From Candidatus Gottesmanbacteria bacterium RIFCSPHIGHO2_02_FULL_39_11 (GTDB lineage Bacteria > Patescibacteriota > Microgenomatia > 2-02-FULL-39-11), in contig MFJL01000019.1 of assembly GCA_001779195.1 (NCBI GenBank), positions 27,192 to 91,191 on the forward strand: a stretch of DNA of 64,000 bases. The letters run 5' to 3'. Shown piece after piece: positions 2,124 through 57,014 of this stretch. The stretch's first letter is position 1. Every line of letters starts with the position of its first letter. Both the position numbers and the translations under genes were made by a program. A model generated the notes under the pieces. The model did no database searches. It worked only from the letters and a program-made list of their open reading frames with translations, and had not been told where the DNA came from.

Positions 2124-3428
2124 ATGGAGCAACATCCGGTACCCAGAAATATCTCAGGATTCCAGTTTCGATTAATAGGGGATATGACCCTAAAACAGTT
2201 TGGGTATTTAGCCGGGGGAGCTCTAATCGGATATTTAATATACGCGGTTTTTCCGATTCCTCCTCTTTTTAAATATCCTCTTATTGCAGTCATTGTTTTA
2301 GGAGGAGTAGCATTGGCATTTCTGCCCATTCAGGACAGACCTTTGGATAAATGGCTTATTGCTTTTATCAAAAGCATAACAAGGCCTACTCAGTTTTTAT
2401 GGCAGAAATACGAAGAAGCTCCCGAGATTTTGACACGTCCCTATACGACCGCCCAACAACCGGTACAAGAAAAGCATGTTCAACTGCATCATGAAAGCAA
2501 CCTGAAGCTTAAAGCTTATCTTGCATCCCTTCCGCCAACTACACAACAGACGTATAATATTCACGAAAAACAGTATATTGATCAAACTCTTGCTCTTTTT
2601 GGTACTCCCGTTCCGATAATCCGAGTCCCTTCTCTTAATTCTTCAACGCCTAATCATCCTCACCAGGAGGAGAGCGTGAGACTTTCACAAGCACCTGCTC
2701 AAATTTTACCCAGTCAATCGATAAGAGTTGCCCCTCCGGTAATTCATCCGCCTCATATTCCGACGGTTATTCCAAGTCCTCCTGCGCAGCCGCCTCCCTC
2801 TATCCCGGTAACCTCATCTTCCCATCAAGCAACAGCTTCTGTTTTGGGAACGGTCAATAACTCAACCGATCCCAACACTGATGACAAGCTAAAACAGCTT
2901 CTTTCTGAAAAGGAAAATCTCGCACGGGAGCTTGAGATGCTTAAAAAGAAGATGGAGACCGAAAAAACAACCGTGGTTGTAAAGCCCCAATTTGCTCCGG
3001 ACATTGGGAATGAATCCACCGTCACAAAAGTTAAGGCTGAATCTGTTACTGATACCGTTGGAATACCGAGTCTTCCTCAAACTCCTAATATGGTTGTAGG
3101 TGTGGTTAAAGATCCAGGGAGGAAAATCCTGCCAAACATTATTATTACCATAAAAGATGCATTGGGTACCCCTGTCCGGGCACTTAAAACAAATAAGCTG
3201 GGTCAGTTTGCAATAGCCACTCCTCTTCAAAACGGAAATTACGTATTAGAATTTGAAGATCCCATGAAACGGTACATCTTTGAAAATGTACAAATTATTC
3301 TTAACGACACGCTTTTTATTCCGGTTGAGGTTTTAGCAAAAGGCCAAAGAGAAATTGTGCGTGAACAGCTTAATAAAGCAATATTTGGAGAATTAAATCC
3401 GGCACCTGCCCAAAACGGACTGATTTGA
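2124..3428 (+). CDS. PrgI-like (VirB3-like) T4SS membrane protein with a long C-terminal extension
   Basis: The N-terminal ~95 aa has the PrgI-family layout (FQFRLIGDMTLKQFGYLAGGALIGYL plus two TM helices). A Pro-rich linker, a coiled coil (KLKQLLSEKENLARELEMLKKKMETEK) and a C-terminal beta-sandwich-like domain follow. It lies directly upstream of VirB4. Confidence 0.55.
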   Translation: MEQHPVPRNISGFQFRLIGDMTLKQFGYLAGGALIGYLIYAVFPIPPLFKYPLIAVIVLGGVALAFLPIQDRPLDKWLIAFIKSITRPTQFLWQKYEEAPEILTRPYTTAQQPVQEKHVQLHHESNLKLKAYLASLPPTTQQTYNIHEKQYIDQTLALFGTPVPIIRVPSLNSSTPNHPHQEESVRLSQAPAQILPSQSIRVAPPVIHPPHIPTVIPSPPAQPPPSIPVTSSSHQATASVLGTVNNSTDPNTDDKLKQLLSEKENLARELEMLKKKMETEKTTVVVKPQFAPDIGNESTVTKVKAESVTDTVGIPSLPQTPNMVVGVVKDPGRKILPNIIITIKDALGTPVRALKTNKLGQFAIATPLQNGNYVLEFEDPMKRYIFENVQIILNDTLFIPVEVLAKGQREIVREQLNKAIFGELNPAPAQNGLI

Positions 3429-3458
3429 TTCTCATGTGAATGATTGAAAAGTAAATTG

Positions 3459-3491
3459 TCACTTTTAACTTTTACCTTTTAACTTTAAACT
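3459..3491. repeat. Heptamer array (TTTTAAC/TTTTACC) upstream of the VirB4 N-terminal ORF
   Basis: cacttttaacttttaccttttaactttaaact. Confidence 0.4.
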
Positions 3492-3496
3492 AAAGT

Positions 3497-4186
3497 ATGG
3501 CATCACCTATCGGAACACCTATTCGCGCATCTACTCAGGATTTTTTGGATATTCAAACTATTTTAGATGATATTATTGTGCTTCGAGACGGATCTTGTGC
3601 AATAGCAATTGAGACAACTGCCGTAAATTTCGGTCTTCTTTCTGAAGAAGAACAGGACGCTCTAATTTATGCATATGCGGCTTTTTTAAATTCTCTCTCT
3701 TTTCCTCTTCAGATTGTCATCCTTTCAAAACGCATGGATATTTCTCTTTATATTGAGAGAATTACACGGGAAGAAGAGCGGCAGGTCGATGAAACAGTAA
3801 GACAGCGGCTCAAAAGATATAAAGAATTTATTATGTCCATTGTCAAAGAAAATAGAGTTCTTGAGAAAAAATTTTATCTGGTTATTTCGTTTTCAGCAGT
3901 TGAACTGGGAGTAAAAGGCGCTTTTCAAACAAATAGTCAAAAGAAAAAATTTCAGTTTTCCATGGATTACGTTTTATCGCGTGCAAAAACATCCCTCCTT
4001 CCCAAACGGGATCATGTACTAAGACAAATCGGAAGAATAGGACTTAAGGGAAGGCAACTTACCACACAGGAATTGGTTGAAATATTCTATAATATTTATA
4101 ACCCTACGTTAACCGGAGAAAAATTGGGAGATGTCGCAGGGTACGAAACTGCAATGGTTACTGGACAAGGAAAAAAATCATCATGA
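3497..4186 (+). CDS. VirB4/TraE-family T4SS ATPase, N-terminal domain (separate ORF; likely frameshifted from the next ORF)
   Basis: FLDIQTILDDIIVLRDGSCAIAIETTAVNFGLLSEEEQDALIYAYAAFLNSLSFPLQIV matches the conserved VirB4 N-terminal region. It overlaps the next ORF by 4 nt, ending in GQGKKSS just after an A7 run. Confidence 0.6.
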   Translation: MASPIGTPIRASTQDFLDIQTILDDIIVLRDGSCAIAIETTAVNFGLLSEEEQDALIYAYAAFLNSLSFPLQIVILSKRMDISLYIERITREEERQVDETVRQRLKRYKEFIMSIVKENRVLEKKFYLVISFSAVELGVKGAFQTNSQKKKFQFSMDYVLSRAKTSLLPKRDHVLRQIGRIGLKGRQLTTQELVEIFYNIYNPTLTGEKLGDVAGYETAMVTGQGKKSS

Positions 4187-6099
4187 ATTTCTCTTTTACA
4201 CCTAAAAAACAAAAACAATCAATTACCCCGGGAGAAGTTTCTAAAGTTGCAATCTCACCTAAAAATCCCGTCCCTGTGCCTGCCGGTGGTACGTCTAAAC
4301 TTGGTAGGGCAGGGGCTATTTCTCCGCAACTGAGAACTGAGGTAAATCATTATGTAAAGGGAACGGTAAATGTAAGAGATATTATCGCTCCCTCTTATGT
4401 AGAGGTAGACTTTGACAATATACGGGTTAACAATACGTATTATCGGACTCTTTTTGTCTCCGGATACCCGAGATATGTCTCTGCTAACTGGCTTCATCCG
4501 GTTCTTTCATTTGACCGGTCTCTTTTTATATCCATGTATATTTATCCTACAGAATCAAAAGTTATTTTAGAGGATCTTAAACGGAAAATCGCGGAGATGG
4601 AAGCAACCATTCAGGTGGATATGAAACGGGGGAAAGTAGTTGATCCCTCAGTCCAAGTAGCACTCGATGATGCTCTGAGCCTTCAGGCACAGCTTGCCAA
4701 AGGCGCTGAAAGATTTTACCAGTTCGGCCTATACGTCACCATTCCCTCCGAGGCAATTGATGATCTTAACCGAATGAGTAAGGAGGTTGAAGCAACTTTA
4801 GGTTCCCTCCTTATTATTCCTAAACACGCAACTCTTTCTCAGGAGGAAGGATTTAAATCAACTCTTCCTATGGGACTGGATAAGCTGGATGTAACCCGCA
4901 ATATGGACACTACGTCTCTTGCTACAACTTTTCCCTTTACCACAGCTTCACTTACTCAAAATGAAGGGATTTTGTATGGAATAAATGAACATGACGGGTC
5001 CCTGGTAATCTTTGACCGGTTTAGCCTCGAGAATTCAAACTCGGTTGTATTTGGAAAATCAGGAGGAGGAAAAAGCTTTCTGGTAAAACTTGAAACTATG
5101 AGACATCTTATGTTTGGAACAGAGGTTTTTGTCATTGATCCGGAAGGGGAATACACAGAGCTTACCAAAGTTATAGGAGGAGAGCTCATCAACTTCTCTT
5201 TTAATTCTCCCATTAAAATAAACCCTTTTGATTTATCCGGAGTTTATATAGAAGGAGAGAATGAGTTAGGACTTAAAATCCTTTCTCTGCATGCTCTGAT
5301 GCGGGTTATTATGGGAGATATTACTCCGGGAGAAGATGCGATTTTGGATCGGGCCCTAGTATTAACCTACAAACAAAAGGGGATTACTCCGGATCCGGGA
5401 ACTCAAAAAAACGAACCTCCTCTTATTGAGGATTTATATAAAGTTCTTATGGGAATGGAAGAAGATCACGCCAAATCCCTTGCTGAAAGGCTTGAAAAAT
5501 TTGTGAGGGGAAGTTTGGCTGGAATTTTTAATCAAAAATCAAATTTGGATCTGAAAAATCCTCTTACGGTTTTTAATGTTAAGGAGTTGGAAGCTGAGCT
5601 TCGACCGATTGCCATGTTTATAATTCTGGATCATATCTGGACAAAAATAAAAAAAACGATTAAAAAACGAATCATGGTTGTGGATGAGGCATGGTACCTG
5701 ATGAAACATCCTGATTCCGCAACTTTTCTTTATGGAATTGCTAAACGCGCCCGCAAGTACTACCTGGGGGTCACAACCATTACTCAGGATGTCGAAGATT
5801 TTCTATCAACAGATTACGGAAAAGCCATCATCACCAACTCATCTCTTCAAATTTTATTAAAACAGTCGCCGGCTGCAATTGAAAAACTCGCCCAGGTTTT
5901 TTACCTATCAGGAGGAGAAAAGCATTTTCTTCTTTCTGCAAATGTGGGAGAGGGACTTTTTTTTGCCGGCTCATCCCATGCCGCAATTCAAATTATTGCC
6001 TCTCCTGAAGAGTATCATTTGGCAACCTCAAAGCCTCAGGACATGGAAGATAAACCTCTTCCCATTTCCCATACCCCCGGACCCTCTCCTGCAGTATAA
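4183..6099 (+). CDS. VirB4/TraE/PrgJ-family T4SS ATPase (ATPase domain)
   Basis: Walker A is FGKSGGGKSF, Walker B is IMVVDEAWYLM, and the VirB4 C-terminal motifs are present. Confidence 0.85.
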   Translation: MNFSFTPKKQKQSITPGEVSKVAISPKNPVPVPAGGTSKLGRAGAISPQLRTEVNHYVKGTVNVRDIIAPSYVEVDFDNIRVNNTYYRTLFVSGYPRYVSANWLHPVLSFDRSLFISMYIYPTESKVILEDLKRKIAEMEATIQVDMKRGKVVDPSVQVALDDALSLQAQLAKGAERFYQFGLYVTIPSEAIDDLNRMSKEVEATLGSLLIIPKHATLSQEEGFKSTLPMGLDKLDVTRNMDTTSLATTFPFTTASLTQNEGILYGINEHDGSLVIFDRFSLENSNSVVFGKSGGGKSFLVKLETMRHLMFGTEVFVIDPEGEYTELTKVIGGELINFSFNSPIKINPFDLSGVYIEGENELGLKILSLHALMRVIMGDITPGEDAILDRALVLTYKQKGITPDPGTQKNEPPLIEDLYKVLMGMEEDHAKSLAERLEKFVRGSLAGIFNQKSNLDLKNPLTVFNVKELEAELRPIAMFIILDHIWTKIKKTIKKRIMVVDEAWYLMKHPDSATFLYGIAKRARKYYLGVTTITQDVEDFLSTDYGKAIITNSSLQILLKQSPAAIEKLAQVFYLSGGEKHFLLSANVGEGLFFAGSSHAAIQIIASPEEYHLATSKPQDMEDKPLPISHTPGPSPAV

Positions 6100-6108
6100 T
6101 AAAAGGGT

Positions 6109-7674
6109 ATGAGCGCTGCCCACGGAAAACAACCTACAGAGTTAACACCGGAACAAGAAGAAGAACAAAAACAAAAAGAGCGTTTTGCTCCTGATCGAAT
6201 GGAACAGGACACAGAGTCTGTTTTCTCCCAATTTTTCACTTTCGCAGCAGCAATGGGCTGGGGAAAAATAAAAGGGGATAGAGAACAATTTGAATTATTT
6301 CAAGCCATTTCTAATACTCATCTAAGCGAAGTGATTCTTGATCTTTCAAACCCACAAAATATAAAGGACGCAAGAGCTCTCTATGCAACTGTTAAAAAAG
6401 AATTTGATAGACAAAATTTTGATCCTAAAACAAAAACATATAAAAAAGCCACTGCGTCCAGAGGTTCTCTTTGGGGAAAAGCAACCATCTCAACTGACAC
6501 CCTTACAAAAGCTGACCAGCAAATAACAGTGGGGGAACACTTTCACTCTCTGGTAAATTCTCATGAAACAAACACCCGTATTGACCAAGCAGTCTCTATA
6601 TATGGAATTAAAAATAGAGAAGAATTTGTATCCTCTTTAGCCAAACATCTGAAGGAAAATAGCGGTAATTTTGATGATGCCATTCATACTGTTGTAAGAC
6701 ATCAGACTGCTCTTGAGAAAACAGGAAAAAAGGATGGAAACTTAAATAAAGAACAAGATAATGCATTAAACTCCTCTTACGAAAAATTTTCCAAACAGGA
6801 ATTAAAAGATGAGGCACGACAAAAAGCGGTTGAATATGGTGAATCCATTAAACCTGAGGCTGAAGAGGTGATGGTTAAAATCAAAGCAGGCTTGGATCCA
6901 GATCAGCTTCAAACAGAACTGAATGCAATCGGAAAACCGGTTCAAGAACCCGAGCCTCCTCCGTCTCCTATACAACCACCTGCTTCTGGTTCTATCTCTC
7001 TGGAGGCTCTTGGTTCCGGACAAAACGCACCGCATCCGGAAATGGACGAGTTATATGGAGAAATGATGGGGGAGAGTCCTACGGTTGTTGTTCCCGCGGG
7101 AAGTCCTTCTCTTAAGGGAGCAGTAAATGCCATTAATAATCCTCAAACTCCGATTCCACATATGTCTTCTGTATCATCTCCAGTAGGATCAGTATCGGTT
7201 AAAGGATTAAAAGGTCTTTTGGGGAAAGCCGCCGGTCTTTTTTCAAAACTTAAATCATTAGCTTCAACTCTTTCAAATGCTACGCTAGCTATTCCCGGGG
7301 TAGGAGAAATAGTAAAAGGACTTCAAATTGCAAAAAAAGTTCTGGATCGTATTCCTATTATTGGACAAGCGGTTAATAATGCGATTAATAATGCTTTTAG
7401 CACTCTTCTTAAAGTGTTTGGATTGTCACTTGCAGCAATTTTTCTTTTTCTTCTGATTTTTATAACCAGTTTCAGCGATCCCTCTACTTTGTTCTCACCC
7501 ACACCATCTAATTTAGGTGCATCAAACCCTTCAAATCTTTCCTGGAGTACATTTGAAAAAGATTATTTACAGCTTGCAGAGAAAAAAGAAGAAAAAGATA
7601 TTTCCTGGATCGAATTTCAAAAACAGTTTCTTAGCTCCTCAAAAATCTATCTTTCAGAGACTTCTTCCCGCTAG
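6109..7674 (+). CDS. Hypothetical protein with an acidic N-terminus, a Pro-rich region and a C-terminal TM anchor (T4SS-associated by position)
   Basis: The long ORF is translationally adjacent to virB4. A PEPPPSPIQPP stretch and a single C-terminal helix (LSLAAIFLFLLIFITSF) are present, and no recognisable family was found. Confidence 0.4.
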   Translation: MSAAHGKQPTELTPEQEEEQKQKERFAPDRMEQDTESVFSQFFTFAAAMGWGKIKGDREQFELFQAISNTHLSEVILDLSNPQNIKDARALYATVKKEFDRQNFDPKTKTYKKATASRGSLWGKATISTDTLTKADQQITVGEHFHSLVNSHETNTRIDQAVSIYGIKNREEFVSSLAKHLKENSGNFDDAIHTVVRHQTALEKTGKKDGNLNKEQDNALNSSYEKFSKQELKDEARQKAVEYGESIKPEAEEVMVKIKAGLDPDQLQTELNAIGKPVQEPEPPPSPIQPPASGSISLEALGSGQNAPHPEMDELYGEMMGESPTVVVPAGSPSLKGAVNAINNPQTPIPHMSSVSSPVGSVSVKGLKGLLGKAAGLFSKLKSLASTLSNATLAIPGVGEIVKGLQIAKKVLDRIPIIGQAVNNAINNAFSTLLKVFGLSLAAIFLFLLIFITSFSDPSTLFSPTPSNLGASNPSNLSWSTFEKDYLQLAEKKEEKDISWIEFQKQFLSSSKIYLSETSSR

Positions 7675-7835: not shown

Positions 7836-8945
7836 TTATCCTTGTACCCGTACCGGCATAATAATATGAAGAAATGTTGAAGCTGACTCACTTGACTTAA
7901 AGAGCCCCGGACTTAAGTTTCCGGATATTTCAAAAACTACATCTCCCTGTGGAAAATTATTAAGAAGATCAAGTAGAAACCGGTAATTAAAAGCAATTTC
8001 TGTCTCTTCTCCCTGAACATTTGCCTCCAAAACTTCCTCATCACCTCCAACCTGAGGAGTATTAGCAGAAAGAGTAATAGTATTTTTCCCAACTACTACT
8101 TTAACTACATTAGCAGACCCCCGGGCAAAAAGAGATGTGGTCTTAACTGCCTGAAGAAAATCATCTTTTTTTAATATCACTTTTGTTTTAAACCCTTGAG
8201 GAATAATTTTTTCAATAGTCGGAAATTCTCCATCTATAAGACGTGAGTAAATCCTCACTTGAGGAAGAGAAAAAACCACCTGATTTTTATCCTTTAATAT
8301 CGTAAATCCCACCTCATTAACTTTCATTTCCGTTGCAATCCGGCTTACTTCAGTTAAAGTAACCGCAGGAATTATACCTATAAAATCCTCGGAAAATTTA
8401 GGAATTGTGATTTTTTCAATAGAAAGCCGATATCCATCTGTTGAGGTTAAAGAAAAGGTGTCTCCTGTCGCAACAATGCGAACACCGGTTAATATAGGAC
8501 GGGCCTCATCTGTTGATGCGGCAAAAACCATCCGGGGAATAGCGGTCTTAATAACAGAGTAGGGGAGTCTTCGATCAAAAACTGTAACCTCGGGAAAGGG
8601 AGGGAAATCTTCAGGATTAGATGTTGCAAATGTGGCTTTTGTTTTCCCGCTTATAATTTTTAATTGTGTTGCCTCCTGAATAAACTCAAGTTTTTCCCCA
8701 TGAACACTTCCCACAAACTCACTAAGAATTTTTCCGGGTACTGTAATTTCTCCTTTTTCTTCAACTTTAACCGGAAGGGTAAAAACAATTCCAAGTTCCA
8801 GATCTGTTCCTGATAAAATAAGTTCTTTATCTGTTGCTTTTATAAGGATATTGGAGAGAATGGGAAGTTGAGCTCTTGTAGGAATACTTCTTCCGACAAT
8901 CCCCAGTGCTTTTAAAAATGATTCTTTCAAAACTACAAAATGCAT
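7836..8945 (-). CDS. dnaN: DNA polymerase III beta subunit (sliding clamp)
   Basis: At 369 aa it has the N-terminus MHFVVLKESFLKALGIVGRSIPTRAQLPILSNILIK typical of DnaN, and it sits directly downstream of dnaA. Confidence 0.93.
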   Translation of the reverse strand: MHFVVLKESFLKALGIVGRSIPTRAQLPILSNILIKATDKELILSGTDLELGIVFTLPVKVEEKGEITVPGKILSEFVGSVHGEKLEFIQEATQLKIISGKTKATFATSNPEDFPPFPEVTVFDRRLPYSVIKTAIPRMVFAASTDEARPILTGVRIVATGDTFSLTSTDGYRLSIEKITIPKFSEDFIGIIPAVTLTEVSRIATEMKVNEVGFTILKDKNQVVFSLPQVRIYSRLIDGEFPTIEKIIPQGFKTKVILKKDDFLQAVKTTSLFARGSANVVKVVVGKNTITLSANTPQVGGDEEVLEANVQGEETEIAFNYRFLLDLLNNFPQGDVVFEISGNLSPGLFKSSESASTFLHIIMPVRVQG

Positions 8946-9121: not shown

Positions 9122-10474
9122 TTATCCTACAAGCTTGCTTTTTATCCCCAAGATATCCTCTTGAATTTTTTGATCACTTTCAAGAAGTTTTCCGATTTTG
9201 CGGACTCCATGTAAAATGGTCGTGTGATCCCGTCCACCAAGAAGGGAACCTATATCCATAAGAGGAATTCTTGCTTCCTGTTTTAATAGATAGTAGATAA
9301 TCTGTCTGGGAAGGGCTATAGAACGGTCCCGTTTACTGCTTTTAATTTGAGAAAGTTTCAAATTGTAGTAAGAAAGGACGCAGTTTATAACATTTTGAGG
9401 AGATGTTTTTTGAGCCTCTTTCTGATCTTTTAAATCTGTTTTTAATAGTTTGGAAACAAGATCAATGGTTATAGGGGTATTATTAGTAAGTGCCTCTGCT
9501 GACAGGCGTGTAAGAACTCCCTCAAGTTTTCGAATATTGTCAACATTTGCGGCAATTAACTTGGCAACATCCATAGGAAGAATCATGGACCGTCTTTTCG
9601 CTTTAATAAGAAGTATGGCGGTTTTTAGCTCAAAATCAGGAGGAGCAATATCAATTATTAACCCTCCTTCAAAACGGGATCGCAGACGTGCTTCTAATTT
9701 TTCAATTTCCTCAGGAGGACGATCGGAAGTGAGGATAATTTGTCCTTTACCTTGTTGTACTGTATTAAATGTATGAAAGAATTCTTCCTGTACCGAGTTT
9801 TTCCCTGCGATAAATTGAATGTCATCTATAAAAAGAACATCTGCCCGACGGTATTTTTTTCTAAAATGAGGAGTTGTTTTTCCGCCAATTGCTTCAATAA
9901 TTTCGTTGGTAAACTGTTCCCCGGTACAATACATAATTTTTTTATGCTGTGAATTTGCAAATATCTGATGTCCGATTGCCTGCATAAGATGTGTTTTCCC
10001 AACACCTACTCCTCCGTATAAAAACAGGGGATTGTAGGAAGTTCCGGGGTTTTTAGCAACAGCGGTTGCTGCTGCGTATGCCATTTGATTAGATGAAGAA
10101 ACTGCAAACGTTTCAAACGTATACTCGGGATTAAACGGCAATTGCTCAGTAGGATAAGAGGAGGGGGCGTCATTAAAAGTGAGGAGAGGAAGGTCGTTTG
10201 GATTTTTTTTAATAACGGATGAAGGAGACGGTTCCATAGGAATAAAGGAAACAGAAACGGTTTCTTTTGTATACTCTTTAAGGCGAGTTGCAATTACTGT
10301 TGTATATTTTTTTTCTATGATAGATATCAAAATAGGTTTGTCGCATCCGATAATTGCCTTTTGGTGATCAAAAGAAAGAAGTTTGGTACTGGAAAAAAGA
10401 GTATGAAAAGAAGCCCGGGTTGAGGTGGTTTTTAAGTCCGCTAAAATAGTCTTCCATAAGATATCAACATCCAT
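9122..10474 (-). CDS. dnaA: Chromosomal replication initiator DnaA
   Basis: Walker A is GGVGVGKTHLMQAIG, with DDIQFIAGK, ILTSDRPPEEI and the C-terminal DNA-binding helix RQIIYYLLKQE. The ORF track starts at 10519, but the DnaA-like N-terminus MDVDILWKTIL begins at 10474 and a DnaA box sits just upstream. Confidence 0.93.
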   Translation of the reverse strand: MDVDILWKTILADLKTTSTRASFHTLFSSTKLLSFDHQKAIIGCDKPILISIIEKKYTTVIATRLKEYTKETVSVSFIPMEPSPSSVIKKNPNDLPLLTFNDAPSSYPTEQLPFNPEYTFETFAVSSSNQMAYAAATAVAKNPGTSYNPLFLYGGVGVGKTHLMQAIGHQIFANSQHKKIMYCTGEQFTNEIIEAIGGKTTPHFRKKYRRADVLFIDDIQFIAGKNSVQEEFFHTFNTVQQGKGQIILTSDRPPEEIEKLEARLRSRFEGGLIIDIAPPDFELKTAILLIKAKRRSMILPMDVAKLIAANVDNIRKLEGVLTRLSAEALTNNTPITIDLVSKLLKTDLKDQKEAQKTSPQNVINCVLSYYNLKLSQIKSSKRDRSIALPRQIIYYLLKQEARIPLMDIGSLLGGRDHTTILHGVRKIGKLLESDQKIQEDILGIKSKLVG

Positions 10475-10568
10475 AAGTGAGTTATCCACAATCCTAAAAT
10501 GACCGGACGTCAGCGTCAAGGGAGAGTTACTGGTACTAACTATATGAATATGGTAAAATCCATTTATT
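10475..10568. promoter_or_regulatory. Divergent dnaA/rpmH promoter region with a DnaA box
   Basis: TTATCCACA lies at 10483-10491, immediately upstream of the proposed dnaA start. Confidence 0.55.
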
Positions 10569-25417: not shown

Positions 25418-26404
25418 ATGAAAATCTTGGTTACAGGAGGAGCGGGATATATCGGAAGTATAGTTACGGCCCAACTTATAGAAGAAGGTCATACTGTAGT
25501 AGTATACGACAATTTATCCCGGGGTCACAAAAAAGCGGTTCACCCTGAAGCTGTATTTATAAAAGGAGATTTATCTGACCGGGAAAAAATTGAGCAAACT
25601 CTTCGTGATCACAAAATAGAGGCAGTTATGCATTTTGCAGCTTTTATAGAAGCCGGGGAAAGTATGGTAAAACCGGAAGTTTACTTTCGGAATAATACCG
25701 CAAACGCATTAACTCTTCTTGAGGCCATGACAGCTCAAAAAATTAATTATTTTGTTTTTTCCTCAACAGCTGCGGTATACGGAAATCCGGACTCAATTCC
25801 TATTACAGAAGATAGTAAATTGTTACCCACCAATGCATATGGAGCCTCAAAATTACTGGTTGAGAATATGATGAAGTGGTTTGATCAAATTCATAAACTA
25901 AAATATGCAGCTCTGAGGTATTTTAATGCCTGCGGAGCAACTCCAACCCTAGGTGAAGATCATCAGCCGGAATCTCACTTGATTCCCTTAGCAATTGCTG
26001 CAGCTGTGGGAAAGAGAGATAAGCTTCAACTCTATGGAACTGACTATCCGACAAAGGATGGAACGTGTGTGCGAGACTATATTCATGTGAGTGATCTGGC
26101 AACTGCTCATGTACTTGCTCTTAAAAAAATTACAAGTTCGAAAAATAAAGAATCAAAAATTTATAATCTGGGGAGCGAAAAAGGTTTTACCAACCAGGAA
26201 GTGATTAAGGCAGTCGGACGTGTTTTAGGAAAAGCGGTTCCTGTTATAGAAGCATCCCGCAGAATGGGAGATCCAGCAATTCTAGTTGCCAGTTCAGAAA
26301 AAATTAGAAAAGAATTAGGGTGGATTCCAAAATATACAAAACTGGAAGATATTATTTCATCTGCATGGGAGTGGAGAAAGAAGCATCTAAATGGCTACAA
26401 ATAA
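25418..26404 (+). CDS. galE: UDP-glucose 4-epimerase
   Basis: MKILVTGGAGYIGS is the Rossmann motif, and YGASK is the SDR catalytic Y..K. Confidence 0.9.
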   Translation: MKILVTGGAGYIGSIVTAQLIEEGHTVVVYDNLSRGHKKAVHPEAVFIKGDLSDREKIEQTLRDHKIEAVMHFAAFIEAGESMVKPEVYFRNNTANALTLLEAMTAQKINYFVFSSTAAVYGNPDSIPITEDSKLLPTNAYGASKLLVENMMKWFDQIHKLKYAALRYFNACGATPTLGEDHQPESHLIPLAIAAAVGKRDKLQLYGTDYPTKDGTCVRDYIHVSDLATAHVLALKKITSSKNKESKIYNLGSEKGFTNQEVIKAVGRVLGKAVPVIEASRRMGDPAILVASSEKIRKELGWIPKYTKLEDIISSAWEWRKKHLNGYK

Positions 26405-27449
26405 TATGAATGATTTTTCCTTACACCCTCACCGAAGGTACAATCCTCTAATGGATGAATGGGTTTTAGTTTCTCCTCAACGCACAAAGAGACCTTGGCA
26501 AGGAGCTATCACTCCTGAAATTCAAAAAGAGTCGGTTAAGTACGATTCTCATTGCTATTTATGTCCTGGAAACAAACGGGCGAATAATAAAAAGACTCCT
26601 GATTATACCGGAGCTTATGTTTTTGAAAATGATTTCCCGGCACTTCTTTCTGATAAAACAGATTTTAAATTTCCTCAGGACAACGACTTATTTAACGTAT
26701 CCTCTCAAAGAGGAACATGTAGAGTAATCTGTTATTCTCCTAGTCACAGTCTTACCATGGCAAAAATGACTACTGATCAAATTAATGATGTAATAACCGC
26801 ATGGATAGGTCAATATATTGAGCTTGGCAATTTACCTTTTATTAACTATGTACAAATTTTTGAAAATCGGGGAGAAATGATGGGAGCAAGTAATCCCCAT
26901 CCTCATGGACAAATATGGGCAACAGAACATATTCCGACAATCGTTTCAAAAGAACAGTATGAACAGGAAAAATATTTTCAAAAGAAAAAAACTTCTCTTC
27001 TTTTAGATTATTTAAAATGCGAAATACAAATGAAAGAGAGAACCGTATACGCAAATGATAATTTTGTCTCTCTGATTCCTTTTTGGGCAGTATGGCCTTA
27101 TGAAGTTATGATCGTGCCGAAACAAAAAAAGGAATCCCTTTCACAATTAACTTTGTCAGAACGGTTAAATCTAGCGGATATGCTACGAAATACGATTATT
27201 CGCTATGACAACTTATTTCATACACCTTTTCCTTATACCCTGGGAATTCATCAGGCGCCAACGGATGGAAAAAACCATCCAGAATGGCAATTTCATATCC
27301 ATTTTTATCCCCCGTTACTTCGGTCAGCAACTGTAAGAAAATTTATGGTAGGGTATGAAATGATGGCAGAGGCTCAAAGAGATATCACGCCAGAAGAATC
27401 CGCAGAGAAATTAAGAAGTTTATCAGCAACTCATTATTTCCAGTCTTAA
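26391..27449 (+). CDS. galT: Galactose-1-phosphate uridylyltransferase
   Basis: CYLCPGNKR is the zinc site, and HPHGQIWA is the HPH active site. Confidence 0.9.
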   Translation: MATNNMNDFSLHPHRRYNPLMDEWVLVSPQRTKRPWQGAITPEIQKESVKYDSHCYLCPGNKRANNKKTPDYTGAYVFENDFPALLSDKTDFKFPQDNDLFNVSSQRGTCRVICYSPSHSLTMAKMTTDQINDVITAWIGQYIELGNLPFINYVQIFENRGEMMGASNPHPHGQIWATEHIPTIVSKEQYEQEKYFQKKKTSLLLDYLKCEIQMKERTVYANDNFVSLIPFWAVWPYEVMIVPKQKKESLSQLTLSERLNLADMLRNTIIRYDNLFHTPFPYTLGIHQAPTDGKNHPEWQFHIHFYPPLLRSATVRKFMVGYEMMAEAQRDITPEESAEKLRSLSATHYFQS

Positions 27450-27455
27450 CCTTTT

Positions 27456-28865
27456 ATGAACTCACTCTCTCCTATTGCTCATGAACTATTAACTAGAGGA
27501 ATGAAATCATTTGTTTCCAAGTTTGGATATATTCCTACTCATGCATGGGTAGCCCCTGGAAGAGTAGAAGGGATCGGAAACCATGTAGATTATCAGGGAG
27601 GGAATATTTTTGCTTTTTCCATTGACCGGTATGTGGCTAGCTTTGTAGCTCTTAGAAGACCGGATGCTACTCGCGATATCGGTATGGCCCCTATTCGCAT
27701 GGTTGATTTAAATATTGATGTGACTTTAGATATTCATAATAAATCACCTGGAATTTATAATTACTACCGGCCAGATGGAACAACTGAGAAAGATCGTCTG
27801 GTAAAAGGAATCATTGCACAAATAATGAATCCCTATAAAGATAATCCAAATCAAGTGGGTACAATGCTTCCTGATACCGGGTACTATTCCATACTTGCAA
27901 AAAGAGATCCTCAAATTTATGAAAAAATACGAAGACTTGAAAACGGGTTGGATGTAGTTATAACAGGTAATGTTCCTTTTGAGGCAGGAGTAAGTTCTTC
28001 CGCTGCATTTTCAGTGTCTCTTCTTCAAACACTTTTGGATGCTCTTGATATATCCATGACTGAAAAGGAGAAAATTCATTTTATTAAAATGGCAGAACAC
28101 CGGTCAGGTGCTATTACCGGGCATCTAGATCAAACGGTCTCGCTTATTGGAGGTGCGGTGCTGGTTCAGACAGAAGAAGCAGGACCTCTTCGTATTAAAG
28201 TAGATCCCAGATTTTATGAGTATGAATACATGCTTTTTCCATCGGGTATCAGTCATAGCTTGGCAGGTCCAGATGCTATTTATCCAAAACGGGTTAAAGA
28301 ATGCGATGTCGCATTAAAAACAATTAATACGTTTCTGAAGGAAGAAAAACAAAAGGAGATCCATACTCTTGCGGAACTTGGGAAATTAAAGAACTTTAAA
28401 ACCGTACTTCCTGATATTTATCATATTCTTCCTGATTCTTTAAAAAAACGTGTTAGGCATATTGTGGAAGAAACTTTAAGAGTGGATAAAGCACTTGAAT
28501 GTGTTCAAAATGGAGATGTATTTAGGTACTCTCAACTGCTGAATGAATCCGGAGAAAGTTCAGCACTGCTTTATGAAATTAGCCATAAGGAAGTGGAAGA
28601 TTTAAAACATATAATCTGGAAGTTTTTTAAAGAAAAAAATAAAGATAGAAATGCAAATGACCAGCTTACCTATGCTGCGCGCATGATGGGGGGAGGAGAT
28701 GGGGGTCCAGTCCTTGTTTTTTTACCAAAAGACAAAAAATTAATAGAAGAACTTTTAGAGTATACACAAAAAGAATACTATCAGCCTCGAGGAAGGTCTC
28801 ACCTGATTCCTTTTAATGTAAATATAAGCAGCGGTCCAATCAATCTTCAACCCTATCTAAAATGA
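27456..28865 (+). CDS. galK: Galactokinase (GHMP kinase)
   Basis: PGRVEGIGNHVDYQGG is the galactokinase signature, and PFEAGVSSSAAFSV is the GHMP ATP motif. Confidence 0.88.
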   Translation: MNSLSPIAHELLTRGMKSFVSKFGYIPTHAWVAPGRVEGIGNHVDYQGGNIFAFSIDRYVASFVALRRPDATRDIGMAPIRMVDLNIDVTLDIHNKSPGIYNYYRPDGTTEKDRLVKGIIAQIMNPYKDNPNQVGTMLPDTGYYSILAKRDPQIYEKIRRLENGLDVVITGNVPFEAGVSSSAAFSVSLLQTLLDALDISMTEKEKIHFIKMAEHRSGAITGHLDQTVSLIGGAVLVQTEEAGPLRIKVDPRFYEYEYMLFPSGISHSLAGPDAIYPKRVKECDVALKTINTFLKEEKQKEIHTLAELGKLKNFKTVLPDIYHILPDSLKKRVRHIVEETLRVDKALECVQNGDVFRYSQLLNESGESSALLYEISHKEVEDLKHIIWKFFKEKNKDRNANDQLTYAARMMGGGDGGPVLVFLPKDKKLIEELLEYTQKEYYQPRGRSHLIPFNVNISSGPINLQPYLK

Positions 28866-29056
28866 ACAAAATAAATAGTTATCCTCTTATAAGCTCAGAA
28901 GGGTTAAAAAAAGCTGCCGAGGATTTTAAGAAAGACCTGATCATGGGTCTTTCCAACCAAACCTCTTCCCTTCCCATGATTTTAAACCCTATTCATAGAA
29001 TTCCTGCTCATCCAGGAAGCGGGGTTGCTGTTTCAATCGGATCTTTCAGTTTTTAA
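28862..29056 (+). pseudogene. Hexokinase N-terminal gene fragment (duplicate of the 5' end of gene 30488-31708)
   Basis: The 64-aa ORF has a core DFKKDLIMGLSNQTSSLPMILNPI identical to hexokinase residues 24-47, with ~75 bp about 93% identical at the nucleotide level. It is truncated exactly where the AbiE cassette begins. Confidence 0.6.
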
Positions 29057-29816
29057 CGAGGCTAGCTCTCAAATAGGAAGTGATATAGGAGAATAGCCTG
29101 GGAAGATCGTGCCTTTCTTTTATCGGGACAAAGGGTTGTAAATCACGTACGAAATCTTTCTCTGTAAATTTTCCGAGAGATTTTTCAAGAGGATCTTTTC
29201 CATCCAGTTCTAAACCATAGTATTTCAATTTTTTCTGAATCATCCGCATAGTAGGGTTTATTCCTAGAGTCGACAAATACCAAAGATCATAAAGATCGCG
29301 GCCTTTTTTTCGAGAAGTAAGCGCTCGAATCTTCTCTGCAAACAGTTCCTCTTTTGACAGATGATGAATATAGGAAGTAAATAAAACGGGATAGTCTGTC
29401 TCTATGATAGATTTTTCTTTAATAAGAACTTTTTCGCGAAATGAGAAATCGAGATTGATGAAAATATCATATGGCATGACTCCAGGCTTTAGAGTAAGAA
29501 GGAATCGTTTCCCCGTGATTGTTTTTCTTTCTTTAAACCCTATCGTTTCCTGCTGGGATAACTTTTTAACCGTATCTCTTATAAGAACTAAAAAATCTTT
29601 CTCATCCATATTGACAGTAAAATCCAGATCTTCTGAAAACCGCGGAGCTTTGTAGATCAGGTGAATTGCGGTTCCTCCCTTAAAAAAGATCGATGAACTT
29701 TTCTTTTGCTGATACAGCATACTTAAAAATAAAATTTGAAGATATTCCCGAAGAATGACTGATTGAGTGATATTGAGTTTTTTTGAAAGTAAAGTTAGTT
29801 GGCTAGTCGTAATCAT
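29046..29816 (-). CDS. AbiEii/AbiGii nucleotidyltransferase toxin (DUF1814)
   Basis: FFKGGTAIHLIYKAPRFSEDLDFTV is the AbiEii signature GGTAL...R.SEDLDF. Confidence 0.8.
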   Translation of the reverse strand: MITTSQLTLLSKKLNITQSVILREYLQILFLSMLYQQKKSSSIFFKGGTAIHLIYKAPRFSEDLDFTVNMDEKDFLVLIRDTVKKLSQQETIGFKERKTITGKRFLLTLKPGVMPYDIFINLDFSFREKVLIKEKSIIETDYPVLFTSYIHHLSKEELFAEKIRALTSRKKGRDLYDLWYLSTLGINPTMRMIQKKLKYYGLELDGKDPLEKSLGKFTEKDFVRDLQPFVPIKERHDLPRLFSYITSYLRASLVKN

Positions 29817-30412
29817 ATGTGTTTTTTTACCGTCTCAATCATAGTTTCAAACGATCGTGTGCGGGGAAACTGCTTAGAATAGTGTATGAATTTCGATATC
29901 TTGATACTAGAAAAGTCACATTCCTCAAGGTGGATTGTTTTAATCCCTTTTGAAACAAGGTAAAGTTGATCAAGAAGCGCTTTTTCTGCCTCAGCTATGA
30001 GATAATTCTCTTTTTTTTCATATCCCCAAAAAAGGGATTTATTCAGATGTGTATAGGTAAATAGCTTTTCAAACATCTTTTTTTTGACTGATTTTCCCGA
30101 TGTTGCACTTGTGATCTCATAGGGAAACTGTGGAAGAATGCCTAGACTATTGAGAGCACTCTCAAAAGAAATATACGAGGGTGTATAACTTGATGAAGCT
30201 ATCTCAAAATCAGTGACAGGTCGACCTAGGAACACATAATGATCGCGTTCAATTTTTTTGATGATCTTGCTTTTCTCAAGCCGTTTTATGATGCTATACA
30301 CTGTAGGCTCTTTAGTAACTCCAAGAATATCCTTGAGCGTTTTTAACCGCAGTATTGAGAGCTCTGAGTCGTATAGCCTTTTAGTAAGTGATGCAATCGA
30401 ATACGATTCCAT
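29813..30412 (-). CDS. AbiEi antitoxin/transcriptional regulator (type IV TA system)
   Basis: The N-terminal wHTH (SILRLKTLKDILGVTKEPTVYSIIKRLEKSKII) plus a C-terminal AbiEi_4-like domain overlaps the AbiEii gene by 4 nt. Confidence 0.7.
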   Translation of the reverse strand: MESYSIASLTKRLYDSELSILRLKTLKDILGVTKEPTVYSIIKRLEKSKIIKKIERDHYVFLGRPVTDFEIASSSYTPSYISFESALNSLGILPQFPYEITSATSGKSVKKKMFEKLFTYTHLNKSLFWGYEKKENYLIAEAEKALLDQLYLVSKGIKTIHLEECDFSSIKISKFIHYSKQFPRTRSFETMIETVKKHI

Positions 30413-30487
30413 ATACTATTGATATTAGATAGTTTAAAGAATCGTGTCAAGGTCTTATATGCGAAGAAGAAAAAAGTATGATAAAGT

Positions 30488-31708
30488 ATGCACATGGAAA
30501 ATGATATGAATACGTATCCTTTACTCAGTGACCAGCAGGTTGAGAAGGCTTCTGAGGATTTTAAAAAAGACCTGATCATGGGTCTTTCTAACCAAACCTC
30601 CTCCCTTCCCATGATTTTAAATCCTATTAGCAAAATCCCTGCACATCCCGGAAATGGAGTCGCAGTATCAATCGGAGGGACAAACGGGTATGTATCCCTT
30701 TTTCATATTTCCCAAAGCGGAGTAATCAAATTTCTCAACCGGGAATTTTTTACTCTTCCTACTCAAACCACCAAAGAAAATTTATTTGAATTAATCACAA
30801 AAAAAGTTCCTGCCGTTTCCAAAGGAAAGAAAGAAGTACTTCCTATCGGAATAGGCTTTGCGTATCCCCTAAAGCCTATCCTGCATGCCGGATTTATTGA
30901 CGGAATTTTAGTTGAAATGTCAAAAGGTCGTACTATAAAAGGTCTGGTTGGGCAAAAAGTCGGACAGGAATACCATAGATATCTTATTGAAAAACACAAT
31001 TTAGATACAACCGTGACGGTTGCCAATGATGCAATTTGTCTCTTATTAGGAGGAGATGGGGTGGAGATTGCCGGGGTTGTCGGAACCGGGCTTAATTTTG
31101 CGTATTGGGAAAAAAGATCTCATATTGCACCCCTCAAGCTTTCTGAGCTTCCCGGGTTTTCCCAACATGAAGTTGCCATAAATATTGAGTCTGCAAATTT
31201 TGACAAAATTCCTCCTACTTCACTATTGAAAATAGTAGATAAGCAAAGCAATAATCCGGGGGATGCACTTTCTGAGAAAGAGTGCGCCGGAGCCTATTTA
31301 TTTGAGCTGTTTAATGCAGGGAAAGATGAAATAGTCGGAGAATCATGTCCAAAGATGAATTCAACGGACGAACTGAACGAAATTGTTATTGGGGCGTCAG
31401 AAAAGATAAGAAGCCTGAGTTTGGAAGAAAAAAAACGGGCAAAAGAATTTGCGGAAAACCTTTTTAAACGATCTGCTCAGATAACTGCTATTCAGATATC
31501 AGGAATTTTGGAAAAAATCGGAAAGACAAAAGGGATCGTGCCCATTGTTATGGAGGGAGGAATTTTTTGGAAGGCAAAAAACTATTCAACTCTTGTCAAT
31601 GCCTATATTCATGATGTTCTCCCGGAAGTTATCCCCTCATTTGCCCGTCTGTTTGGTTCATCCCGGAGAGGAATTGCGGTACTTGCCAGAAGTCCTGCGG
31701 CTAGTTAA
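30488..31708 (+). CDS. Hexokinase family protein (eukaryote-type hexokinase fold)
   Basis: MILNPISKIPAHPGNGVAVSIGGTNGYVSL corresponds to ML.PT..P.G.E.G.FLALDLGGTNFRV. LPIGIGFAYP, VANDAICLL, VGTGLNFAY and MEGGIFW...GSSRRGIAVLA are also present. Confidence 0.72.
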   Translation: MHMENDMNTYPLLSDQQVEKASEDFKKDLIMGLSNQTSSLPMILNPISKIPAHPGNGVAVSIGGTNGYVSLFHISQSGVIKFLNREFFTLPTQTTKENLFELITKKVPAVSKGKKEVLPIGIGFAYPLKPILHAGFIDGILVEMSKGRTIKGLVGQKVGQEYHRYLIEKHNLDTTVTVANDAICLLLGGDGVEIAGVVGTGLNFAYWEKRSHIAPLKLSELPGFSQHEVAINIESANFDKIPPTSLLKIVDKQSNNPGDALSEKECAGAYLFELFNAGKDEIVGESCPKMNSTDELNEIVIGASEKIRSLSLEEKKRAKEFAENLFKRSAQITAIQISGILEKIGKTKGIVPIVMEGGIFWKAKNYSTLVNAYIHDVLPEVIPSFARLFGSSRRGIAVLARSPAAS

Positions 31709-56131: not shown

Positions 56132-56218
56132 GGAGGAGTCGCATAGTTGGTCCATTGCGAGAGTTCGCTAAACTCTTGAGCCGCAAGGCTCGCGTGGGTT
56201 CAAATCCCACCTCCTCCG
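56132..56218 (+). tRNA. Type-II (long variable arm) tRNA, probable tRNA-Ser (anticodon GCU)
   Basis: The hand-folded cloverleaf has acceptor GGAGGAG/CTCCTCC, a 3-bp D stem, anticodon stem AGAGT/ACTCT with loop TCGCTAA, a variable hairpin GAGCC-GCAA-GGCTC and a T arm GTGGG-TTCAAAT-CCCAC. Position 33 is C. Confidence 0.7.
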
Positions 56219-56221
56219 CTT

Positions 56222-56839: not shown

Positions 56840-56926
56840 GGAGAGGTCGCATAGTGGCCTAGTGCAGAGGTTTACTAAACCTCCGTCCTGTCAAAGGGAC
56901 CGCGAGTTCGAATCTCGCCCTCTCCG
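56840..56926 (+). tRNA. Type-II tRNA (long variable arm), Ser-like; the anticodon loop reads TTACTAA (apparent anticodon ACU)
   Basis: Acceptor GGAGAGG/CCTCTCC, a 3-bp D stem, anticodon stem GAGGT/ACCTC and a T arm GCGAG-TTCGAAT-CTCGC. The anticodon assignment is uncertain. Confidence 0.65.
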
Positions 56927-57014
56927 CAGCGTAAGAAATCCCGTCTAAATCGGGATTTCAACGCTGCTGGAACGCTGAAATTTTCAGCAGAAAATTTCTT
57001 GCGTTGCCGCCTTC

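Follow-up and report, generated by a model that had tools for sequence, protein, structure and literature searches.

We analysed a 64,000-nt window (the whole stretch of DNA studied, to which all coordinates refer) from a contig of Candidatus Gottesmanbacteria bacterium RIFCSPHIGHO2_02_FULL_39_11, an uncultured bacterium of groundwater, and identified an AbiE abortive infection (Abi) cassette of two genes, at which the inverted AbiEii-AbiEi operon is inserted between a relic of the 5′ end of a hexokinase gene and a complete copy of the same gene. This anatomy had been proposed in an original prediction made from the letters of the DNA, and our analysis confirmed it. The genes concerned carry the GenBank locus tags A3D77_01470 to _01490, assigned by exact protein matches. 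Judging from their codons, the relic and the 5′ end of the intact gene are alleles that had long diverged under purifying selection, not a fresh duplicate that has since decayed. On balance we lean towards a homology-anchored insertion-duplication, in which the cassette would have arrived, via host recombination, together with the 5′ end of a foreign hexokinase gene.

The relic is a 64-aa open reading frame (ORF), the ATG of which overlaps the TGA stop codon of galK as ATGA (28862-28865), as the original prediction had it. The homologous part comprises relic codons 2-60 (28865-29041) and codons 5-63 of the intact hexokinase (30500-30676), which align without gaps, in register and at a constant offset of 1635 nt. 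Identity was 76% over the entire repeat (135/177 nt) and 85% over 28910-29041 (112/132), and it peaked in a 75-nt core (28919-28993) with 71 identical nucleotides (94.7%) and 25 identical residues, E23-I47 of the intact protein. The core is flanked by sequences showing 51% identity on its 5′ side and 73% on its 3′ side, and the repeat figures of the original prediction proved correct in pairwise alignment. Immediately outside the repeat, identity fell to 22-35%, which is the random level. The repeat gave a blastn E-value of 6e-40; of 60 pseudo-cassettes placed at random in the window, not one was flanked by a repeat at E ≤ 1e-8.

The homology ends at 29041, in the codons for SIG that precede the GGTNGY stretch of the intact gene, and the left junction holds no spare DNA. 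The fragment had been said to end at the stop of the inverted AbiEii gene; this holds, with the homology ending 4 nt short of that stop codon and the stop of the ORF lying inside the AbiEii 3′ end. Past the homology, the relic ORF adds four unrelated codons (SFSF) and a stop (29054-29056), which are the AbiEii 3′ end read from the opposite strand. No terminal inverted repeats or other repeats were found at the cassette ends, and no terminators or extra promoters above background were detected around the junctions. The relic, which holds only residues 9-57 of hexokinase domain 1, is annotated in GenBank and UniProt as a hypothetical protein (A3D77_01475, OGG15679.1). By its sequence, A3D77_01475 is a hexokinase pseudogene fragment. 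The intact hexokinase is a full-length protein with both hexokinase domains and retains all 64 invariant columns of 41 Gottesmanbacteria hexokinases.

The divergence of the two copies was counted by the method of Nei and Gojobori. Over all 59 shared codons there were 22.8 synonymous differences at 39.3 sites and 19.2 non-synonymous differences at 137.7 sites, giving proportions of 0.58 (pS) and 0.14 (pN), respectively; over a core of 44 codons, the counts were 15.0 at 31.2 sites and 5.0 at 100.8 sites (pS 0.48, pN 0.05). At least ~62-64% of the differences would be expected to be non-synonymous in a neutral relic, whereas 5 of 20 were so in the core (P = 0.0004-0.0009) and 19 of 42 overall (P = 0.005-0.011). 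Neutrality of the relic since duplication was thus rejected, in a test that is conservative because synonymous sites are saturated; the synonymous divergence (dS) between the relic and the intact 5′ end is ~0.8-1.1.

The relic has also kept what the family conserves. In an alignment of 40 other Gottesmanbacteria hexokinases, it retains 21 of the 21 columns conserved at ≥90%, and the intact copy retains 20. At the 13 residues that differ between the copies, the commonest residue of the family is found five times in the relic and once in the intact copy. Nevertheless they are each other's nearest relatives, with 78% amino acid identity versus at most 67% to any other locus, and have several lineage-specific residues in common. 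The homology sets in at the N-terminus; upstream of it, the DNA of one copy is unrelated to that of the other (35% identity). The start contexts differ accordingly, the relic being coupled to galK through ATGA, while the intact gene has a leader of 37 nt to itself and differs in its N-terminal extension. The synonymous excess, the undecayed relic and the separate start contexts together argue for two alleles which diverged while functional. Such a pattern would fit alleles of sister lineages that were brought together and is not what target duplication is expected to leave. The original prediction had spoken of a partial target duplication. What stands of it is a direct duplication that flanks the cassette as the footprint of its arrival, as at related AbiE cassettes; what does not stand is duplication at insertion followed by decay, since the differences are mostly synonymous and the relic is complete at the conserved columns.

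Because the DNA comes from a metagenome-assembled genome and has diverged alleles of a single gene in close proximity, an assembly or binning chimera joining the hexokinase alleles of two strains had to be considered. Four other contigs (L001, L028, L029 and L030; here and below, L numbers denote the loci compared), from separate ENA assemblies, are >99.9% identical to the window across the junctions and jointly cover both, with L028 spanning 28734-30724. Moreover, the exact 64-aa product of the relic, the C-terminus of which is made by the junction, is recorded from 13 contigs. The recurrence of the same junctions in separate assemblies and of this product indicates that the arrangement is not an assembly artefact. 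A chimera would have had to arise identically in at least four other assemblies from different assemblers, and hexokinase codon 60 and the AbiEii 3′ end have no common sequence that could mislead an assembler; we regard it as highly improbable.

Under the insertion-duplication that we favour, the hexokinase gene would ancestrally have followed galK directly, with the ATGA overlap, and its first 60 codons would survive as the dead relic. The donor would be DNA of a related lineage with abiE head-to-head with hexokinase, and integration would have occurred by host homologous recombination within the hexokinase 5′ region. This could have taken place through insertion-duplication, with a circularised fragment of ~1.6 kb entering by a single crossover, or through one homologous end and one illegitimate join. 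The product of either route is the same: the resident copy, now truncated, flanks the cassette on one side, and a complete gene starting with the donor leader flanks it on the other. The 37-nt region upstream of the intact hexokinase would then be the leader brought by the incoming allele. Later, recombination between the repeats might release a circle, which could then insert into that gene again in a relative. The locus does present the features of a single-crossover anatomy: a 3′-truncated upstream copy, a complete downstream copy with its own leader, homology from the N-terminus and diverged repeats. In an Escherichia coli assay for homology-facilitated illegitimate recombination, single crossovers between a circular molecule and the chromosome produced duplications of the homologous locus, 109-950 bp long, in 56 of 60 events (PMC3240628).

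We surveyed 80 metagenomic loci with AbiEii relatives, in addition to the contexts of three closer relatives, for direct repeats common to the ≤700 nt upstream of abiEi and the ≤700 nt downstream of abiEii. The survey was small, and it dealt with distant relatives on metagenomic contigs. As controls, pseudo-cassettes of 1.35 kb were placed, at random positions only, on the same contigs, the GTDB loci and the window. Repeats at E ≤ 1e-3 were detected at 14 of 41 real cassettes versus 11 of 322 pseudo-cassettes, and at E ≤ 1e-8 at 9 of 41 versus 1 of 322 (Fisher p ~1e-8 in both cases). With the three loci added, direct repeats were found at 13 of 44 cassettes and inverted repeats at 1 of 44. A scan of viral contigs for AbiE loci returned only relatives of 25-32% identity, which were not used in the survey.

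The right copy started between -12 and +28 nt from the AbiEii stop in 10 of the 13 positive loci, and in 8 of those 10 the left copy ended 50-136 nt before the abiEi ATG, with a unit between the repeats of typically 1.41-1.50 kb. The repeats consist of host sequence, measure 20-190 nt and are 81-97% identical; no pair of the 13 (loci among L031-L118) was 100% identical. The duplicated host sequence was different at each locus, and tRNA-gene or attC-type repeats were therefore dropped as a source of the repeats. Related cassettes were found in many unrelated targets. Where coding sequence was duplicated, pS exceeded pN in all four cases, including the window (pS/pN 0.58/0.14, 0.37/0.05, 0.26/0.10 and 0.61/0.22; pooled, ~0.53 and ~0.14). 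In L082, each copy of the duplicated start of a Gmd-like gene has its own ribosome-binding site and a different N-terminal extension. This duplicated gene start and the pooled excess of pS over pN form a pattern elsewhere that supports the recombination model. It is possible, and we put it forward only tentatively, that this clade of AbiE is a discrete, recombinase-free unit of ~1.4-1.5 kb that carries a short host-sequence "handle", in many cases the start of a gene, and depends on host recombination for its insertion, which leaves diverged direct repeats of 20-190 nt with a truncated relic on one side. Alternatively, any accessory gene in a compact, recombining genome may commonly show such a footprint of flanking repeats, or an end-specific mechanism may produce it.

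Table 1. Features of the galE-hexokinase region, followed by host-sequence repeats at five surveyed cassettes (left copy/right copy, positions within the respective locus)
Feature	Position	Strand	Evidence or description
galE	25418-26404		
galT	26391-27449		
galK (galactokinase), last gene of the galE-galT-galK run	27456-28865	+	Pfam GalKase_gal_bdg 1.8e-12, GHMP_kinases_N 8e-12
Relic, 3′-truncated 5′ hexokinase fragment, 64-aa ORF	28862-29056	+	Pfam Hexokinase_1 0.002, residues 9-57
Left junction	29042-29045		4 nt separating the last homologous position (29041) from the AbiEii stop codon (29046-29048, -)
abiEii, predicted DUF1814 nucleotidyltransferase toxin, 256 aa, apparently intact	29046-29816	-	PF08843 6e-32, PADLOC AbiEii 1.3e-34
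abiEi, candidate antitoxin and autorepressor, 199 aa	29813-30412	-	PADLOC AbiEi 1.1e-26
abiE promoter and putative operator	30403-30450	-	-35 TTGACA 30450-30445, -10 TAATAT 30427-30422
Region upstream of the intact hexokinase, 37 nt	30451-30487	+	Not conserved in other cassettes; no homology to the DNA upstream of the relic
Intact hexokinase, 406 aa (duplicated part 30500-30676)	30488-31708	+	Pfam Hexokinase_1 (PF00349) 2e-18, Hexokinase_2 (PF03727) 2e-23
L046 repeat	5250-5297/6759-6806		48 nt; start of a 402-aa gene, from exactly its ATG
L082 repeat	5290-5342/6752-6804		53 nt; start of a Gmd-like gene, 17 identical residues, 6 nt differences
L086 repeat			55 nt; start of a small membrane protein
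L074 repeat	2556-2743/4213-4400		188 nt; 3′ end of the upstream gene and 138 identical non-coding nt
L116 repeat	3310-3348/4768-4806		39-45 nt; intergenic hairpin

We searched public data for the empty site among hexokinase and galK homologues, 19 GTDB loci, the nearest galK contexts and 90% clusters, and found none. The nearest other hexokinases are 66-67% identical, and in none of the 19 GTDB loci and contexts examined does a hexokinase gene stand next to galK; in L015 and L021, galE and galT lie 3-6 kb upstream of hexokinase. The nearest galK genes are 41-43% identical and belong to galT-galK pairs that are followed by other genes. No N-terminus of the relic type was found in the 90%-identity cluster of the hexokinase. 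At positions 7635-11188 of L020 (Ca. Gottesmanbacteria RIFCSPLOWO2_01_FULL_39_12b, MFJR01000009), an AbiEi/AbiEii pair lies ~1 kb upstream of hexokinase. It is 53-62% identical to the pair in the window and co-directional with hexokinase, with an epimerase gene in between, and no significant repeat flanks it. L020 was the only other locus at which abiE lay near hexokinase, in an arrangement unlike that of the window. Since abiE stands near hexokinase in L020, a donor with such a neighbourhood is plausible, and the adjacency is suggestive of it.

Several points weigh against our preferred insertion-duplication. The adjacency in L020 may be chance, and neither a donor-like locus (abiEi head-to-head with hexokinase) nor an empty site was found, so that we infer the direction of the event and the number of its steps. 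There are just 4 nt between the AbiEii stop and the non-homologous junction. At the related loci, the cassette is tightly bounded at either end, which also fits a discrete element with defined ends, and duplications occur at intergenic sites as well; these three points would be explained either by deletional trimming in compact genomes or by an end-specific mechanism. The comparison of the copies rests on small counts (59 codons), and later allelic recombination from cassette-free relatives could mimic copies that were "born diverged" after a duplication in situ.

Such a duplication in situ, in which the insertion itself copied ~180 nt of its target and the copies, identical at birth, have diverged since (or, in a variant, one of them was refreshed by later allelic recombination), would account for the direct-repeat geometry. 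It would also agree with the tight placement of the right copy in 10 of the 13 positive loci and with direct repeats around intergenic insertions such as L116, where no gene needed rescue. It does not sit well with the synonymous excess and the undecayed relic, or with the fact that none of the 13 repeat pairs is fully identical. Because the homology does not extend upstream of the start codon, a leader and an in-frame start would both have to be present in the cassette end by coincidence. Furthermore, no transposase or integrase was found nearby in the scanned ORFs, and no enzyme of either kind is known to make variable duplications of 20-190 nt. We consider this explanation unlikely. The two copies may, alternatively, descend from two full-length hexokinases, either the resident gene and an abiE-borne xenologue or two old paralogues, the first of which lost everything from codon 61 to the AbiEii stop by deletion. 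Both the divergence under selection and the tight junction would follow, since the deletion could not enter abiEii or galK. In a bin of Ca. Gottesmanbacteria RIFCSPHIGHO2_02_FULL_40_13 (MFJN01; L016, L023 and L024), there appear to be two hexokinase genes, of which one is complete and the other is split over two contig ends. Yet the second gene of that bin could be a true paralogue or a result of strain mixing, no other locus had tandem hexokinases, and the scenario needs two events plus a reason for landing beside the resident gene, which makes it improbable in our view.

Other origins were rejected. Insertion as a transposon or insertion sequence was dismissed in view of a 177-nt repeat at 76% identity, the lack of terminal inverted repeats and the lack of a transposase in the scanned ORFs. 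An integrase-borne island with a surrogate gene end was dismissed as well, as only abiEi and abiEii lie between the repeats and related cassettes occupy unrelated targets. An mRNA-derived (retro) insertion was dropped because the unit includes its promoter.

The AbiE cassette appears to be intact and self-sufficient; it has a promoter of its own and a dyad that would serve as operator. The first gene of the operon, abiEi, overlaps abiEii by 4 nt. All residues of nucleotidyltransferase motifs I-IV, defined as I-II (GG...R...DhD), III (K, R) and IV (+DxxD) (PMC3985639), are present in AbiEii (GG47-48, R59, D63-L-D65, K162, R169 and R173-D-L-Y-D177) and are invariant in 33 homologues. The AbiEii profile matched PDB entries only distantly, 4o8s and 4ok0 at 2e-8 and 6y56 at 0.014; single-sequence searches of PDB gave no match for AbiEii or AbiEi. 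AbiEi matched the PADLOC AbiEi models at 1e-26 to 1e-20 and NCBIfam TAA_AbiEi at 1.7e-8, which at 34 bits is below the cutoff of 150, and no Pfam AbiEi family matched the abiEi product. Presumably, judging from family membership, AbiEi represses the operon and neutralises the nucleotidyltransferase AbiEii, which would arrest growth upon phage infection.

The promoter is sigma-70-like, with a spacer of 17 nt between TTGACA and TAATAT. A 17-nt imperfect dyad (30403-30419/30429-30445; 82% complementary) extends from the -35 box to the start codon and covers the -10 box. The block of ~41 nt from the -35 box to the ATG (30410-30450, minus strand), TTGACAAGTTTCCTTAAACTCTATAATATnTAGAGTATATG, is kept in seven related cassettes, the proteins of which are only 53-62% identical; it was seen in L116, L111, L114, L031, L032 and L020. 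This similarity ends abruptly at the -35 box, and from there to the stop codon the AbiE unit measures ~1.4 kb. Directly upstream of the AbiE promoter of L112 (3218-3398), there is a short tandem repeat with units like GACTTTATGACTTTAAGGACTTTC, which forms a spurious 46-aa ORF. L114 carries two different AbiEi/AbiEii pairs in tandem beside V-type ATPase genes (3414-6434).

Between 25.4 and 31.7 kb, the gene order is galE, galT, galK, the 64-aa ORF, two minus-strand genes and the 406-aa hexokinase gene. The galK product is 100% identical to OGG A3D77_01470 and matches NCBIfam gal_kin at 7e-36, below the cutoff of that model. According to Pfam, the cassette neighbours are galM (aldose epimerase), GH1, galE, galT, galK, SIS and PIG-L genes, with further ones encoding a GH63/trehalase-like hydrolase, a PfkB kinase and a DeoC/LacD aldolase. 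Every neighbour that could be assigned belongs to carbohydrate metabolism, housekeeping genes being farther off. No integrase, transposase or second defence gene was found in Pfam scans that covered the ORFs between 19.5 and 42 kb and, in the rest of the window, most of those with ≥150 aa. The locus is a lone AbiE cassette inside a sugar-catabolism cluster and not the mobile defence island that the original prediction had called it. The GC content of the cassette is slightly lower (0.33-0.37 versus 0.38-0.40), a difference that is not diagnostic.

The stop codons of hexokinase (31706-31708) and of the convergent SIS-domain gene (31705-31707) overlap in a 4-nt TTAA (31705-31708), so that there is no intergenic space 3′ of hexokinase either. 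Genes for PrgI-like and TraG/VirB4-like ATPase proteins (2124-6099) adjoin dnaN (7836-8945) and dnaA (9122-10519), and the presence of the latter two places the window near the replication origin; this group lies ~20 kb from the AbiE cassette and no link between them was seen. ARAGORN predicted a second tRNA-Ser, with the anticodon ACT (56840-56927), 0.7 kb past a normal tRNA-Ser(GCT) (56132-56219). A serine anticodon with A34 is unusual in bacteria.

We regard the locus as a well-preserved scar of horizontal acquisition, at which a defence cassette would have landed in a tightly packed sugar operon of a candidate phyla radiation (CPR) bacterium without loss of the interrupted gene, and which allows an annotated hypothetical protein to be corrected to a pseudogene fragment. 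Toxin-antitoxin (TA) and Abi cassettes are called mobile, and the literature that we found leaves unexplained how a recombinase-free unit of two genes would move. Nor did we find a report in which diverged direct repeats of host gene ends are a systematic feature of the flanks of AbiE or other TA cassettes. If it is true that about a third of the related AbiE cassettes have direct repeats of host sequence resembling functional alleles, a concrete route would be host recombination via a carried gene-end handle. The pattern of flanking repeats may mark an undescribed, integrase-free spread of AbiE cassettes.

The cassette resembles the type IV TA system AbiE, e.g. that of Streptococcus agalactiae, and the related MenAT of Mycobacterium tuberculosis, in its bicistronic, antitoxin-first operon with a 4-nt overlap (PMC3985639, PMC7319586, PMC7450476). 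It is also like AbiE in its DUF1814 nucleotidyltransferase toxin with motifs I-IV and in the dyad symmetry of its promoter for autorepression, predicted in our case. On the other hand, the proteins of the window are distant, their host is a CPR bacterium, and their activity is a predicted one. AbiE systems are abundant in groundwater bacteria (PMC12259885). The arrangement of an insert between direct repeats, with one truncated and one complete gene copy, is that of insertion-duplication (Campbell-type) or homology-facilitated illegitimate recombination, for which experimental duplications of ~0.1-1 kb are a precedent (PMC3240628); merodiploids formed by transformation are described in another report (PMC3784515). 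Compared with the experiments, the present event is natural and its repeats differ by 15-24%; the segment of homology spans just ~180 nt, and we infer the circular or linear intermediate. AbiE systems, their abundance in groundwater and insertion-duplication are all already known, and the locus is a further example. The elements e14 and phage 21 in icd of E. coli also leave an imperfect direct repeat of the target gene end, the displaced fragment remaining as a pseudogene, with differences that are largely synonymous. Elements of this type bring along the gene for a site-specific integrase and insert at one constant site, whereas the 1.4-kb AbiE cassette encodes no integrase and its relatives are found in many targets.

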